Source: a virus (Duplodnaviria > Heunggongvirae > Uroviricota > Caudoviricetes). From it: a DNA stretch of 64,000 nucleotides. Below the pieces are notes generated by a model. The model had not been told where the DNA came from, searched no databases, and saw only the letters and a program-made list of their open reading frames with translations. The stretch lies in IMG/VR virus record IMGVR_UViG_3300015214_000024, positions 137,787 to 201,786 of that record. One strand, given 5' to 3'. The translations under genes and the position numbers were made by a program. Of the stretch, positions 27,726-60,864 are shown piece by piece (the first letter of the stretch is position 1; the number at the start of each line of letters is the position of its first letter).

Positions 27726-27800
27726 TCCGATTTGGTCCAGGTGGATGGGCACAGGATTCTAAACCCTAGGAGACCGGTTCGATCCCGGTAATCGGAGCCA
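27726..27800 (+). tRNA. Amber suppressor-type tRNA (anticodon CTA)
   Basis: TCCGATT/AATCGGA-G-CCA acceptor, loop TTCTAAA, ACCGG-TTCGATC-CCGGT T arm; anticodon stem has 2 mismatches. Confidence 0.75.
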
Positions 27801-36892: not shown

Positions 36893-38452
36893 ATGAAGTT
36901 CAATACACCAGGTCAAGCACCAATTCAATCACAAACGTCACCAAATACCGTTACTCACGAAGGCGCACCATCATATAAGTTTGATTCCATTATGGAACTT
37001 TATATGGCAGTTGCGACCACACTTATGGGTGAACCAAAGTTTTATGAATCAGGTGATGAACGCGCTAAGCGCATTCGCCGTTTGATTTCCAAAGCAGTCC
37101 AATCTGGTGAAATTGAAACTGTAGCAAAGTTGGCAGTTTACTGCCGTGAAACTTTGAACCTACGTTCAGTCCCAATCTTTATCACTGTATCTTTGGCGAA
37201 GGAAATTCGTGATCAAAAGATCGCCTGGGACGGCCTCCGCCGCCTCGCTAACCGGGTTATTCAACGTGCTGACGAAGTTCGCGAAATGTTCGCTGCTGCT
37301 GAGCAAATTTTCGGTGATAACCAGAACAACAAAGTGTTTAAGCGCATTGTTCCAAAGGCTCTCTTAAAGGGCATCGGTGATTCTTTGAACAAGTTTGATG
37401 AATACCAGATTGCCAAGTACAAGGGTGGTTCAGGCGCAGTGTCGTTCAAGGACGTTCTTCGAGTCATTCACCCAAAGCCAGCTAACGAATCAAAGGGAAT
37501 TCTTTTCGCTAAGATTATGAATGATTCTTTGGCCCCAGCTGACACTTGGGAAAATAAGATCTCAAACGAAGGCTCAACGTCTGAAAATTGGCAAGAAATT
37601 GCCAATGACTCAAAGGTTGGTATTATGGCAAAGCTTCGCAATTTGCGCAACTTTGTCAAGCACAAGGTTGATTTGACAAATGTCATCGCACATTTGACCA
37701 ACCCAGTCGCAGTAGCCAACAGCAAGCAATTGCCATTCCGTTGGTACACTGCGTATCGTGAACTTGGCGGTGAAAGTATGAAGCGCAATTGGTATTACCG
37801 CGCACCAACTCCAGAAGTAGTTGCTCCAGCAAACCTTTTGGGTGCTTTGGAAGATGCTTTTGATTTGTCAATTGCAAACTTGCCAGATTTGGGTGATGAT
37901 GTTTTGATTATCGCTGACCAGAGCGGTTCAATGCAGAGCCCAATCAGTCAAAAGAGCACAGTAACTTGTGCGGAAATCGCCGCTGTTTTGGCAGCCGGTG
38001 TTTGGTTCAACCAAACACGCTTAGGTAAGCGCGCTTTTGTGGCCGGCTTTGCTGATCGCGGTAAGGTCTACTCGTGGAGCAATCGTACATCAGCTTTGGC
38101 TGCGGCTAAAGAAATGATGAATACTGAGCTTGGCGGTTCTACTCGAATTGACACGGCTTGGCAGGCTGCTAAAGCTGCTGGTTTGAAACCATCAACTATT
38201 ATCGTCTTGAGCGATATGCAGATGACGGGCTCACATTATGAGCGTTTGATGGATCCAGAAGCTTATGGCTTGGCCAATGTCAACACTCTTAAATTGTCAG
38301 TTAACCTTCAAGGTTATGACAACACGCCATTGGCTGTTAATAACGGCTGGTACCAGCTAACTGGTTGGAGTGAAAAGATCTTCAGCTTCGTTGAAGCTAT
38401 GCGCAATCCAAGCGATGCGATAAATCAGATCAAGAATTCAATCCAACTTTAA
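36893..38452 (+). CDS. Ro60/TROVE domain ribonucleoprotein with vWA domain
   Basis: KFYESG, LRSVP, RADE, FDEYQIAKY, DVLRVIHPKP, TWE, LRNLRN, SKQLPFR, DQSGSM. Confidence 0.93.
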   Translation: MKFNTPGQAPIQSQTSPNTVTHEGAPSYKFDSIMELYMAVATTLMGEPKFYESGDERAKRIRRLISKAVQSGEIETVAKLAVYCRETLNLRSVPIFITVSLAKEIRDQKIAWDGLRRLANRVIQRADEVREMFAAAEQIFGDNQNNKVFKRIVPKALLKGIGDSLNKFDEYQIAKYKGGSGAVSFKDVLRVIHPKPANESKGILFAKIMNDSLAPADTWENKISNEGSTSENWQEIANDSKVGIMAKLRNLRNFVKHKVDLTNVIAHLTNPVAVANSKQLPFRWYTAYRELGGESMKRNWYYRAPTPEVVAPANLLGALEDAFDLSIANLPDLGDDVLIIADQSGSMQSPISQKSTVTCAEIAAVLAAGVWFNQTRLGKRAFVAGFADRGKVYSWSNRTSALAAAKEMMNTELGGSTRIDTAWQAAKAAGLKPSTIIVLSDMQMTGSHYERLMDPEAYGLANVNTLKLSVNLQGYDNTPLAVNNGWYQLTGWSEKIFSFVEAMRNPSDAINQIKNSIQL

Positions 38453-45387: not shown

Positions 45388-45472
45388 GTCAAAACTACTA
45401 AAGACGAATGGTAGAGTCAGCCCGCTCTTATACGGGATAATAGCTGGTTCGATTCCAGTTAGTAGTTTTGGC
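45388..45472 (+). ncRNA. tRNA-like RNA with extended acceptor stem and 8-nt anticodon loop
   Basis: GTCAAAACTACTA/TAGTAGTTTTGGC; CCCG-CTCTTATA-CGGG; GCTGG-TTCGATT-CCAGT. Confidence 0.6.
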
Positions 45473-45619: not shown

Positions 45620-45717
45620 TATGAGCCAGGCGGCGGGAGTAGAACAGTGGTACTTCACCTCCATCCCAGGAGGAGATTGTAGGTTCGATTCCTACCTTGC
45701 CGCCCGTCCTGGCCATA
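45620..45717 (+). ncRNA. tRNA-like RNA with 6-nt anticodon loop and paired flanks
   Basis: CGGCGGG/CTTGCCG; CCTCC-ATCCCA-GGAGG; GTAGG-TTCGATT-CCTAC; flanks GCCAGG/CCTGGC. Confidence 0.6.
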
Positions 45718-53334: not shown

Positions 53335-53363
53335 TTGACTCCGGACTAAATACATTATATAAA
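53335..53363 (+). promoter_or_regulatory. Sigma70-like promoter of tRNA cluster 2
   Basis: TTGACT-17 nt-TATAAA with A tracts upstream; spacer CGGACTAAATA as at 42244. Confidence 0.72.
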
Positions 53364-53408
53364 GTATAAATAACTTTGTAGAAACTTTTATAGGAAAGTG
53401 AATTTAAA

Positions 53409-53495
53409 ATGTTAAACCTAGTACTCAATCCAGTTAATTTGTTAGGACTCAATCCTAATCAATTGCCTGTGGGTGACTCGGGGACAGCATTTTAA
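53409..53495 (+). CDS. Attenuator leader peptide MLNLVLNPVNLLGLNPNQLPVGDSGTAF (Leu/Asn/Pro-rich)
   Basis: AGGAAAG upstream; 15 of codons 2-20 are L/N/P; followed by a terminator and Leu/Asn/Pro tRNAs. Confidence 0.82.
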   Translation: MLNLVLNPVNLLGLNPNQLPVGDSGTAF

Positions 53496-53524
53496 AATCT
53501 AAATAAAAGATTTAAATGAAGGTT

Positions 53525-53557
53525 ACCCCGGGAAACGCAAGTTTACCCGGGTTTTTT
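53525..53557 (+). terminator. Attenuator terminator of cluster 2
   Basis: CCCGGGAAAC-gcaa-GTTTACCCGGG-TTTTTT; GGGTGACTCGGGG (53471) in the leader can pair with GTTACCCCGGG. Confidence 0.85.
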
Positions 53558-53567
53558 ATTGCTTACA

Positions 53568-53690
53568 AGAGTTTAGTTTAGAGTGTGGTGAAATGGTAAA
53601 CACGGGCGGCTAATAACCGCCCCCCACAGAGGAAACGAGCATTTAAATGAACGTTGCTGGTTCGAGTCCAGCCACTCAAAACTAAACTTT
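53568..53690 (+). ncRNA. tRNA-like RNA: loop CTAATAA (AAT), oversized variable region, extended acceptor, no CCA
   Basis: AGAGTTTAGTTT/AAACTAAACTTT flanks; GGCGG-CTAATAA-CCGCC; GCTGG-TTCGAGT-CCAGC. Confidence 0.65.
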
Positions 53691-54243: not shown

Positions 54244-54325
54244 GGGGCTGTGGCTAATGCGAATGGTACAGCTAATAGTTTTAGAAACTATGCTTTTGAG
54301 AGTTCGAGTCTCTCCAGCCCTACCA
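54244..54325 (+). tRNA. tRNA-Leu(TAG), short variable region
   Basis: ATAGT-TTTAGAA-ACTAT; GGGGCTG/CAGCCCT-A-CCA. Confidence 0.82.
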
Positions 54326-54623: not shown

Positions 54624-54699
54624 GCGGTTGTGGGCAAAAGGTAAAGTCGGCAAACTTAAAATTTGTGTCATATTGTGGGTTCGAGTCCCACCTACCGCA
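54624..54699 (+). tRNA. tRNA-Leu(TAA), short variable region
   Basis: GCAAA-CTTAAAA-TTTGT; GTGGG-TTCGAGT-CCCAC. Confidence 0.8.
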
Positions 54700-54952
54700 C
54701 AAAAAGATGAAAAAGGCGTTGACAACGTTTTAACATCAAGTTAATATGCGAAACAAGAAACGTACTTAACAGTAAGTTTTTCGTTTAGTGGTATTTCTTT
54801 AATAGCCCTAATAGGCTGGGATTACGGAACGCTATGTTGAAGGACATAACTCGGAAATCCCCGTGTGAGGCGGTCATCCAAAGTGGTAGTCGAATTATGG
54901 TTGGAAGAAACGGAATGTAAGGACCACCGAAATGGTGCAAGGCCATTATAAC

Positions 54953-58325: not shown

Positions 58326-59591
58326 ATGGCGATGTATGATCAGTATGTATGCGTAATGTTCCCGTATCCTAGTGGCGCTGGCCTGCATTTGGGTCATTAT
58401 TACAACTATGCTGTAATTGACTCATATGCTAGGTGGCAGCGTTTTAAAGGTCAGACGGTTTTTCAACCTTTTGGTTATGATGCTTTTGGCTTGCCTGCAG
58501 AAAACTATGCTCGCCAAATTGGCGGTGATCCTAGAACAATAACTAATCAAAATATTCAAAATTTCCGTAAACAAATGCGAAATATGAATACTTTGTATGA
58601 CGAACAGTTGGTTACTTGTGAAACTGATTACGTTAAGTGGACCCAATGGATCTTTAATGCTTTGAAAGATCGTGGATTAGCATACAAAGCTTGGGGTGAA
58701 GTAAATTGGTGTGAACAGTGCGGGACCGTGTTGGCTAATGAACAAGCGCAAAATGGCATTTGTGAACGCCACGGAACTCCTGTTGAAAAACGTCAAATGA
58801 ATCAGTGGTATTTCAAGATTACTGATTATACTGATCGATTGATTAAGAATTTGGACTGGATTGATTATCCGGAAGGGACTAAGAAGCAACAGCGCAAATG
58901 GTTGGAGGATCAGCAAGATTGGTGTGTCAGTCGTCAGCGTTCTTGGGGCTGTCCTATACCAATTGAAGGTGAAACTGACACCTTGGACACTTTTGTTGAC
59001 TCTTCATTTTATTTCTTGCGCTATTTGACTAAAAGTGAAGATGAGTTTTTGCCAGCTGATCAATACAAGCAAGTCGATCTGTATGTTGGTGGCCCAGAAC
59101 ACGCTTGTATGCATTTGATATATGCTCGTTTTATTCATATGGTTTTGTTTGATATGGGAATTGTTCCTGAAGAAGAGCCATTTAAGAAAGTTATTCATCA
59201 GGGTATGATTACCAAGGATGGGAACAAGATGAGCAAAAGTAAAGGTAATGCCGTTAGTCCTGATGACTATGATCCTGACGAATTGAGAATGTATTTGATG
59301 TTCTTGGGGCCATATTTTGAAGGTGGGGATTGGAGTGACCAGCATATTGTTGGTGTTCGCCGCTTCTTCAATAGGATGAAAACTTGGTTGGGAGAAGCTG
59401 GCACTGAAAATATTGACACTTCTCAGTTGGAAAATCAAATTGATCATTATGTTTCTACTTTCAAATTTAATAAAGTAGTTTCAAGTTTTATGGAATTTAT
59501 GAACAAAAATAAATCCAAAAAAGTTGATAATGAAACTCGAAATAAAATTGTCAGAATGTTGACTAATTTTGCCCCAGGGTTTCGAATTTAA
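58326..59591 (+). CDS. leuS: Minimal leucyl-tRNA synthetase (no CP1 editing or C-terminal domain)
   Basis: MFPYPSG.GLHLGH, GYDAFGLPAEN, TVLANEQ, DWCVSRQR.WG.PIP, DTLDTFVDSS.YF, GG.EHA..HL.YARF, KMSKSKGN. Confidence 0.93.
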   Translation: MAMYDQYVCVMFPYPSGAGLHLGHYYNYAVIDSYARWQRFKGQTVFQPFGYDAFGLPAENYARQIGGDPRTITNQNIQNFRKQMRNMNTLYDEQLVTCETDYVKWTQWIFNALKDRGLAYKAWGEVNWCEQCGTVLANEQAQNGICERHGTPVEKRQMNQWYFKITDYTDRLIKNLDWIDYPEGTKKQQRKWLEDQQDWCVSRQRSWGCPIPIEGETDTLDTFVDSSFYFLRYLTKSEDEFLPADQYKQVDLYVGGPEHACMHLIYARFIHMVLFDMGIVPEEEPFKKVIHQGMITKDGNKMSKSKGNAVSPDDYDPDELRMYLMFLGPYFEGGDWSDQHIVGVRRFFNRMKTWLGEAGTENIDTSQLENQIDHYVSTFKFNKVVSSFMEFMNKNKSKKVDNETRNKIVRMLTNFAPGFRI

Positions 59592-59770: not shown

Positions 59771-59789
59771 TATGCCCACTTGGCGGAAT
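59771..59789 (+). repeat. 19-bp direct repeat of the 5' end of tRNA-Leu (second copy 60706..60724)
   Basis: TATGCCCACTTGGCGGAAT occurs twice, flanking an ORF and the HNH gene. Confidence 0.85.
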
Positions 59790-59795
59790 TTGAAT

Positions 59796-60035
59796 ATGAT
59801 AAACCTTGAAAATATTGTTGAATCTCTCAAAAGGCAATATCCTGAATATGATTATGAGATATTGAATAATAAGATTGGAATCTGGGATCCTCCTGGAAAC
59901 CATTATAAAGGAAGATACCATATACAAATTGCAGAATGTGAAATAACTGAAGACAAAAATTATGATCATAATTTTTGGATAGATTTTTTAGAAAAATGTA
60001 TCTTTATTCATAGAATGAATAAGTATAATTTTTAA
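59796..60035 (+). CDS. Hypothetical protein
   Basis: MINLEN start chosen because the upstream part of the ORF overlaps RNA-like sequence. Confidence 0.5.
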   Translation: MINLENIVESLKRQYPEYDYEILNNKIGIWDPPGNHYKGRYHIQIAECEITEDKNYDHNFWIDFLEKCIFIHRMNKYNF

Positions 60036-60078
60036 TTAAAATTTGCGTCAACTATAAATAAAGCTAAAAGGTAACTTT

Positions 60079-60705
60079 ATGCTTTGTGATTATGGTTGCG
60101 AACAGGAATCAAATTTTGTTCTTAAAAATGGTAAAAATTGTTGCGCAAAGAGTCAAAATTCATGTCCTGCAATAAGGGCTAAGACTGGGGCAACTGTTAA
60201 GCATCAATTTAAATCTGGCAGTAGAAAACGTCAACCATATGTTTATGCTGATTTGCCTGATGAAACAAAAGAGAGAATGAAATGGAACAAAGGAAAAGAA
60301 ATTGTTCCAAACGAAATTGTGTTTGCTGAAAATAGCAAATATGATAATGATGTGGTTAAAAAAAGAATTTTACAAAACAATCTTTTAGATTATAAATGTG
60401 CCGAATGTGAGTTGACAGAATGGCAAGGCAAAAGTATAGTGTTGGAGTTAGAACACTGCAACGGCGTTCGAAACGATCATAGGATTGAAAACTTAAAGTT
60501 TTTGTGTCCAAATTGCCACTCACAAACGGAAACGTTTAGAGGAAGAAACAAAAACACTGGAAAAGTTATTGTTACTGATGAAGAGTTGTTGACAGCGTTA
60601 AAGTCGACTGCTAATATAAGACAAGCTTTACAGAGTGTAGGACTTGCTGCTAAAGGCGGAAATTATGCTCGAGTTAAAGCTTTAAAATTAAAGTTTAATG
60701 TTTAA
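60079..60705 (+). CDS. HNH homing endonuclease
   Basis: CAEC..W, LELEHCNG..ND.R.ENL..LCPNCHSQT; TATAAATA upstream. Confidence 0.88.
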   Translation: MLCDYGCEQESNFVLKNGKNCCAKSQNSCPAIRAKTGATVKHQFKSGSRKRQPYVYADLPDETKERMKWNKGKEIVPNEIVFAENSKYDNDVVKKRILQNNLLDYKCAECELTEWQGKSIVLELEHCNGVRNDHRIENLKFLCPNCHSQTETFRGRNKNTGKVIVTDEELLTALKSTANIRQALQSVGLAAKGGNYARVKALKLKFNV

Positions 60706-60708
60706 TAT

Positions 60709-60864
60709 GCCCACTTGGCGGAATGGTAGACGCCAGGGACTTGTCGGAAAGAAACCTTAGGGTTTAGAACGCCACTTAGTATGGCGACGGTGCGAATCCG
60801 GAATCCGAAAGCTAAAATCCCTTGCCCTTTGGGCGTACCGGTTCGAGTCCGGTAGTGGGTACCA
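60709..60864 (+). tRNA. tRNA-Leu(TAA) interrupted by a 71-nt structured insert in the anticodon loop
   Basis: GCCCACT/AGTGGGT-A-CCA; AGGGA-CT[60742..60812]TAAAA-TCCCT; long variable arm. Confidence 0.82.

Follow-up and report, generated by a model that had tools for sequence, protein, structure and literature searches.

We describe here a split tRNA-Leu(UAA) gene in a 64,000-nucleotide stretch of phage DNA (henceforth the window; positions 137,787 to 201,786 of virus record IMGVR_UViG_3300015214_000024), whose exons are separated by a 71-nt insert that appears to imitate part of a tRNA. We consider it quite probable, from sequence comparison, that the insert is a functional intron, removed from the transcript, with ends defined by the insert itself. 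Our preferred account, to which we give a probability of about one half, is a tRNA-mimic intron cut at its 5′ end by the RNase P of the host and at its 3′ end by some other activity, the exons being sealed by an ATP-dependent RNA ligase of the phage. What can be observed directly is a conserved structure, a variable insertion site, ends that stay fixed relative to the insert, and intact host tRNA exons.

The split gene (60709-60864, plus strand, 156 nt) is called by ARAGORN as tRNA-Leu(taa) with a 71-nt intron when introns are allowed, and was missed by ARAGORN without introns and by Rfam. The call bears out the initial annotation of the window, which had described a tRNA-Leu(TAA) at this place with 71 nt inserted in the anticodon loop. 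Taking out 60742-60812, the boundaries proposed there, leaves an 85-nt class II tRNA-Leu(UAA) with every arm paired, the loop CU-UAA-AA, A73 and an encoded CCA. The restored loop (CT-TAA-AA in the DNA) thus stands, but homologues favour the boundaries 60743-60813 (U34|A35), which are consistent across the family; the product is identical either way. An intact allele (L418) matches the spliced product at 78 of 85 positions and is identical to it throughout the anticodon arm. The same split gene was found, without a change, in two independent Logan assemblies (L386 and L387, no mismatch over 14–16 kb), so that it is not an assembly artefact. DNA of this phage is contained in SRR6484323 and SRR8449813. 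With the family-consistent boundaries, the parts of the gene are as follows.

60709..60742, plus strand: 5′ exon of tRNA-Leu(UAA), positions 1-34, ending CUU; matches the intact allele L418
60743..60813, plus strand: 71-nt insert, a putative intron with a four-way junction; family-consistent boundaries
60743..60748, plus strand: G at tRNA-equivalent +1 (opposite A72), then the 5′ strand of stem P1, UCGGA; P1 is 100% paired and four of its five pairs change on both sides
60749..60751, plus strand: AAG linker, conserved in the alignment
60752..60765, plus strand: P2 hairpin; pairing kept; sequence, length and loop variable
60765..60769, plus strand: UAG(A) linker, conserved, the conservation being partly imposed by the later search patterns
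60770..60786, plus strand: P3 hairpin with loop CUUAGUA; loop unconserved, hairpin absent in L370; not an anticodon
60788..60800, plus strand: P4, with T-loop UGCGAAU (60791-60797) on a stem of 3 bp; conserved more than any other part
60801..60808, plus strand: GAA, invariant in the alignment, then the 3′ strand of P1, UCCGA
60809..60813, plus strand: 5-nt tail AAGCU, equivalent to tRNA positions 72-76; the family keeps its length but not its sequence (CCA in L370)
60814..60864, plus strand: 3′ exon of tRNA-Leu(UAA), from position 35 to CCA, with the long variable arm

The closing stem and three hairpins drawn in the initial annotation are indeed the minimum-free-energy fold of the insert. Since folding alone does no better than shuffled sequences (z −1.3), the evidence for this structure is comparative. 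A first search pattern, which asked for no more than a hexamer resembling a T-loop ahead of the 3′ exon of a Leu tRNA, gave L028 (also L039, L055, L056) and L049; later patterns built from the common core of L028 and L049 gave L141/L171/L181, L148, L152, L203 (=L355), L292 and L339, and a split-tRNA search of the L292 contig gave L370, a variant without P3 in a short-armed Leu host. One further pattern returned chiefly ordinary tRNAs. Altogether the family comprises ten distinct sequences in eight host settings (seven besides the present gene), in Leu, Ala and Thr tRNAs. The sites are Leu-UAA 32/33 (L028, L141), 34/35 (twice, the present gene and L370) and 35/36 (L049, with exons identical to those described here at 76 of 85 positions), Leu-CAA 32/33, Thr-UGU 33/34 and Ala-UGC 34/35 (twice, L148/L152, recognised as Ala by G3.U70, and L339).

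The members share a consensus made of 1 nt, P1 (5 bp), AAG, the P2 hairpin, UAG(A), the P3 hairpin, A, NGG-UGCRAAU-CCN, GAA, P1′ and 5 nt. Its conserved elements, the closing stem, the T-loop UGCRAA(U/C) and the fixed linkers, together correspond to a tRNA top half. In an alignment of nine distinct sequences pairing holds in 99.2% of the cells, both sides have changed in 10 of the 15 pairs, and every one of the four helices has at least one such compensatory pair. None of 500 shuffles reached these pairing and covariation values, and slid controls gave 27–42%. The covariance model built from the family scores its members at 57–68 bits, does not pick up ordinary tRNAs, and over 70 phage records found the element only within tRNA anticodon loops, with no free-standing copy in those records. 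L370, which was outside the training set, was recovered end to end (E ~0.002). A decayed pseudogene, named in the initial annotation as an outcome that would undo its reading, is made unlikely by these comparisons: the structure is conserved and the exons are undecayed. As a separate observation, L401/L402 (G001, 134 kb) carry four split tRNAs on one contig, those for Thr, Ala and Leu holding members of this family and that for Met a Lak-like insert (see below).

The emphasis that the initial annotation placed on the T-loop-like hairpin was well founded. Its suggestion that the P3 loop displays a Leu anticodon, TAG, is not supported: P2 and P3 loops vary in sequence and length, the P3 loop of homologues is 4–8 nt long and unrelated in sequence, the hairpin is missing from L370, and position 37 is U. 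Of the idea of a mini-tRNA nested in a tRNA there survives the mimicry of the tRNA top half, but not a decoding tRNA. A functional nested tRNA would have a 7-bp acceptor, a D-arm with GG, a 7-nt anticodon loop with R37, a 5-bp T-stem and CCA; the insert does not conform to this plan, and ARAGORN made no call at a 70% threshold. Comparison with the tRNAs of this phage also rejected the insert as a copy of one of them. Rfam has no family matching the insert (E≤1) or the homologue loci, and the model has no match in Phosso, Atu_ph07, RHph_TM30, Lak-A1 or contigs related to the LeuRS-like gene described below. When the locus and two inserts were compared by BLAST with 50,697 phage records, only exon or chance matches came back, and there is hence no cultured carrier yet. 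Three exact-pattern scans of 185,579 prokaryote genomes gave no match or chance non-tRNA matches, which, the patterns being exact, does not prove absence.

A simple rule emerges for the ends of these inserts. While the insertion site ranges from 32/33 to 35/36, the ends do not move with respect to the insert and fall at tRNA positions +1 and +76; any measuring must therefore take place on the insert. The bases that separate the anticodon stem from P1 sum, whatever the host, to the 7-nt loop plus 6, and when four splits of these 6 were tested only 1+5 yielded Y32, U33 and a purine at 37 in all hosts. L028/L141 and L355 permit no other split, and for the present gene it gives 60743-60813. The 5′ end is then the base opposite 72 (tRNA +1) and the 3′ end comes at the sixteenth nucleotide after the T-loop (tRNA 76), just where a mature tRNA has it; this 16-nt distance follows from the chosen split, the independent facts being the constant sum and the single workable split. 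The tails themselves differ, L370 ending C-CCA, L028 ending C-CUA and the present insert having AGCU at 73-76, and a free sequence of fixed length suggests, from the sequences compared, selection on distance. Pairing of exon CUU with the tail AAG as an internal guide works here and in L049 and fails in L028, L355 and L370, and was rejected as a general rule.

The same spacing is shared by two unrelated inserts, one tRNA-shaped and ending ACCA (L043:8735-8837, 103 nt, in Leu(UAA) at 34/35) and the other a 36-nt pure minihelix of acceptor, T-arm and 4-nt tail, with G1.A72 (L097:6205-6240, minus strand, in tRNA-Tyr at 35/36). The L043 contig carries a second tRNA-shaped insert in Thr(UGU) (L043:10457-10610).

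Short introns in phage tRNAs have been noticed before. Devoto et al. 2019 first reported 'enigmatic' introns in tRNAs of the Lak megaphages (Fig. 4, Table S6), one of them possibly encoding a tRNA (PMC6784885), and a 2026 survey repeats the remark without giving a mechanism (PMC13037316); literature searches retrieved no mechanism for short phage tRNA introns. The Lak introns are likewise short structured anticodon-loop inserts in tRNAs of jumbo phages; one relative may have them and another not, some resemble tRNAs, and they have no known route of splicing. The present gene belongs to this broad kind, having intact exons around a short structured insert and intact alleles in other phages. The Lak inserts differ, however, in being 79–141 nt long and AT-rich, with a T-loop of the UUCG type and, on the 5′ side of the tRNA-like part, an additional hairpin, whereas here the tRNA-like part covers the whole insert from +1 to +76. 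Nor does our model (R1) find any of the three Lak-A1 introns (Tyr, Thr and Phe, in L436), which places the gene outside the Lak family in the strict sense. The insert family is thus uncatalogued, within a known but unexplained kind of intron. Plain hairpin inserts of ~20–32 nt without a T-loop occur in other Leu(UAA) genes (L414, L420, L417, L195); L414/L420 correspond to 'JGI.trna6 Asn(ATT)' of Devoto Table S6, better read as a split Leu(UAA).

How might such an insert be removed? RNase P leaves a 3′-OH on its upstream product and a 5′-phosphate on the downstream one. It gauges a fixed distance on the stack of T-arm and acceptor and also cleaves mimics that are not tRNAs (PMC4919913), and ATP-grasp ligases require a 5′-phosphate and a 3′-OH (PMC7824862). 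In its modelled fold, the insert has the geometry of an RNase P substrate (T-loop, 5′ end opposite 72, 3′ overhang). As in tmRNA, 4.5S RNA and mascRNA, mimics cut by RNase P (PMC4919913), a T-loop with an acceptor-like stack would serve here as the processing signal; the difference is that the present mimic lies within a tRNA and would itself be thrown away, its flanks would need rejoining, and Rfam has no match for it. Regarding the enzymes at hand, the initial annotation had looked to RtcB or Rnl ligases and a splicing endonuclease: the phage has four ATP-dependent RNA ligase genes, one of Rnl1 type and three of Rnl2 type, at about 24.7, 51.6-52.2, 54.3 and 340.2 kb of G000, while RtcB and tRNA_int_endo were not found in the genome search. 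A PNK-like kinase and a CCA-adding enzyme are also encoded. Genome searches were negative for Lactamase_B_2 (RNase Z-like), PIN_5 (HARP), RVT_1 and RNase P RNA.

A protein-dependent intron, one of the options raised in the initial annotation, is thus the reading that the sequences favour. The insert would be a small, mobile, non-self-splicing intron imitating the top half of a tRNA (acceptor stem and T-arm, 12 layers, with a 4-nt 3′ overhang), to which two swappable hairpins would be attached. The precursor would be transcribed together with a cluster of Leu, Asn and Pro tRNAs. Host RNase P, measuring from the T-loop, would cut at +1 and leave a 3′-OH on the 5′ exon; a second cut, after position 76 and 16 nt from the T-loop, would be made by a non-standard activity; and an Rnl1- or Rnl2-type ligase of the phage would join the halves, held together by the anticodon stem, into tRNA-Leu(UAA). 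Speculatively, G-A opposite G-A might form tandem sheared pairs that complete five T-stem layers. If the insert is indeed a functional, removed intron, we hold this route of RNase P, second cut and ligase at about two in three. A fuller version is put forward only tentatively, as somewhat less likely than an even chance: a tRNA-splicing pathway at work in the infected bacteria, with an intron impersonating a tRNA, its ends measured from its own T-loop, with a CCA-independent 3′ cut at 76 by an undescribed activity (perhaps a phage enzyme, or attack by the 3′-OH that RNase P frees), forming a portable cassette that could enter any tRNA between 32/33 and 35/36.

Several points weigh against this account. 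For RNase Z to cut after position 76 the precursor must carry CCA; in its absence the cut falls after 73 (PMC7479834). With junctions at 76 and tails at 73-76 that are mostly not CCA, the 3′ cut is not accounted for by this enzyme, for which only L370 would be a suitable substrate. The tail AGCU of the present insert lacks CCA and so does not fit ordinary RNase Z, and were the cut to fall after 73, the 3′ exon would retain three bases too many. It follows from the tail and the RNase Z rule that a different activity is needed, or that a phage enzyme of another kind does the whole job. Recognition by RNase P is not assured either, given that beyond its GAA the T-stem has just three Watson-Crick pairs, that a G occupies position 55 and that 1.72 is in most cases mismatched. 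Jumbo phages commonly encode RNA ligases whether or not they carry introns. The genome has a second, short-armed tRNA-Leu(UAA) gene (54624-54700), so that the split one may be dispensable. The later homologue patterns fixed AAAG, UAGA, the T-loop and GAAU, and the invariance of those bases is partly built in. Finally, the alignment (A3) was fitted to the model, although the pairing itself was not imposed by the database patterns.

The difficulty at the 3′ end would disappear if a dedicated phage endonuclease bound the core (AAG, UAGA, UGCRAAU, GAAU) and made both cuts of the same intron at the same ends, PNK and Rnl then sealing the exons. The many invariant unpaired bases and G55 go further than RNase P would require, a cut at +76 that does not depend on CCA suits no standard host enzyme, and the PNK-like kinase and Rnl1 are present. 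We nevertheless judge this unlikely: no candidate gene is shared among the carrier contigs, whose common genes are generic (HNH, PhoH, Hsp20, metallophosphoesterase, GNAT and PD-(D/E)XK nuclease), the contigs being 5–26% complete and the test weak, and the genome searches gave no tRNA_int_endo, HARP or RNase Z-like gene.

The conserved structure would be expected equally of a 156-nt RNA that functions unspliced, as a decoy or scaffold, either baiting defence nucleases that bind the anticodon or elbow or partnering a TROVE/Ro60 protein. The window does hold a TROVE/Ro60-family gene (36893-38452), and the second Leu(UAA) gene would make the split one available for such a role. A form that is never spliced, however, leaves unexplained why a 7-nt loop with an isotype-matched anticodon is restored in eight hosts under one register, and why tail sequence drifts while tail length is constant; a Y RNA (YrlA) match in Rfam is absent at the locus and at the homologue loci. 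This we consider distinctly improbable.

Still less probable, to our mind, is that the insert acts as a miniature ribozyme of a new type, cleaving or transesterifying at its own ends either alone or with the help of a ligase. An invariant unpaired core, an invariant G.U pair and ends fixed to the insert could be so explained; against it are the reduction of the core to 54 nt in L370, the lack of any consistent guide pairing between exon and intron or of a conserved junction base, and the absence of Rfam ribozyme matches. We give as little credit to a dead gene, whose anticodon loop once received, by ligation or recombination, a small tRNA-like RNA that is never removed. A matured RNA inserted in this way would likewise leave ends at +1 and +76, reflecting its entry, and a redundant Leu(UAA) gene exists. 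The exons, however, are undecayed in all hosts, compensatory changes run throughout the insert, no free-standing copy of the element was seen in the records searched with the model, and the phage genome search gave no RVT_1 reverse transcriptase.

A degenerate group I intron or an archaeal-type bulge-helix-bulge (BHB) intron is largely refuted and retains next to no probability. The insert shares with group I introns the host tRNA and the U34/A35 site, which we take to be that of the cyanobacterial and plastid introns of tRNA-Leu(UAA). It was already judged too short for one in the initial annotation, and rightly: it has 71 nt, no Rfam group I match and no detectable P3–P9 core (usually >200 nt), and its last base is U, as against A in most homologues and G in one. 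The insert is far shorter than a group I ribozyme and has neither catalytic core nor terminal G, and members of its family also occupy 32/33, 33/34 and 35/36 and enter tRNAs for Ala and Thr. The BHB introns of archaea are spliced by EndA and RtcB, and resemble the insert in being short, non-catalytic, variable in position and bounded by local structure. The motif (a 4-bp helix with two 3-nt bulges) pairs at 0 of 4 positions here and 0–3 of 4 in homologues at the family register; in the phage's own genome the search gave neither EndA nor RtcB, and the host is probably bacterial, the nearest cultured phages infecting Rhizobiaceae. Inserts of ~190–200 nt that look, by eye, like ordinary group I introns were seen in Leu(UAA) and Met tRNAs of other contigs (L052:2886-3155, L054:8920-9193).

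The split gene belongs to a jumbo phage whose record (455,147 nt) is estimated to be complete. Its closest tail sheaths are those of Sinorhizobium phage Phosso and Agrobacterium phage Atu_ph07 (50–54%), from which the host is probably bacterial and possibly alphaproteobacterial. Under code 11 long open reading frames (ORFs) span 89% of the genome, which has ~70 tRNA genes; an intron-allowing search found no further convincing split tRNA among them. Two tRNAs with a CUA anticodon (window 27726-27800 and G000:15281-15358) occur in this genome, well read by code 11, in which TAG is a rare stop (19 of ~324 long ORFs). Irregular anticodon loops are found in tRNA-like genes at window 45393-45468, 45631-45705 and 54244-54325 (ARAGORN 'ctta', 'cc' and 'aat').

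The split gene sits within a cluster of mainly Leu, Asn and Pro tRNAs that also includes a short LeuRS-like gene (421 aa, window 58326-59591). This shortened LeuRS adjoins long-armed and short-armed tRNA-Leu genes (54440, 54624) and has relatives in 18 viral contigs. Ahead of the cluster, window 53335-53560 has an attenuator-like arrangement of a promoter-like sequence, a leader of 28 codons, rich in those for Leu, Asn and Pro and with TTA used twice, and a hairpin with a T-run. Directly after this terminator lies a tRNA-like sequence (window ~53570-53690) that ARAGORN does not call, with an acceptor stem ~10 pairs longer, the loop CUAAUAA and a long variable region. Upstream of the split gene are two further features.

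60079..60705, plus strand: HNH-like endonuclease ORF (PF01844, E=0.002, under the curated cut-off), ending 3 nt upstream of the tRNA; a neighbour, not an obligatory partner
59771..59789, plus strand: 19-nt duplicate of the tRNA 5′ end (= 60706-60724), the probable scar of an HNH cassette insertion

In window 59771-60724 the 19-nt repeats of the tRNA-Leu 5′ end flank an 81-aa ORF and the HNH-like ORF, an arrangement that, by its sequence, resembles a mobile endonuclease cassette in its own right, inserted at the 5′ end of the tRNA. Related HNH-like ORFs adjoin other tRNA genes in this phage and in G004, where a relative stands upstream of the split Leu and HNHs stand upstream of intact tRNAs too. 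An obligate partnership was rejected, as in L141, L049, L355 and L152 the split tRNA is not directly preceded by a related HNH gene, but the cassette could still aid the spread of the split allele. The genome holds no second copy of the tRNA 3′ exon such as an integrase attachment scar would leave.

To our knowledge, the introns known in bacterial tRNAs are self-splicing group I or II RNAs. The present case adds a rule of sliding sites and fixed ends and a CCA-independent 3′ junction. The rule is testable, as it predicts ends set by the insert at +1 and +76 regardless of host tRNA or site, and it bears on mechanism: since most tails lack CCA, a simple model of RNase P, RNase Z and ligase cannot suffice. 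Should the insert prove not to be spliced out, the family would be a new structured RNA. If it is spliced, it would represent an additional route of tRNA splicing, not shown before in bacteria or their viruses, would give the multiple RNA ligases of jumbo phages a possible job, and would be one reason why tRNAs are missed or mis-called when phages are annotated.
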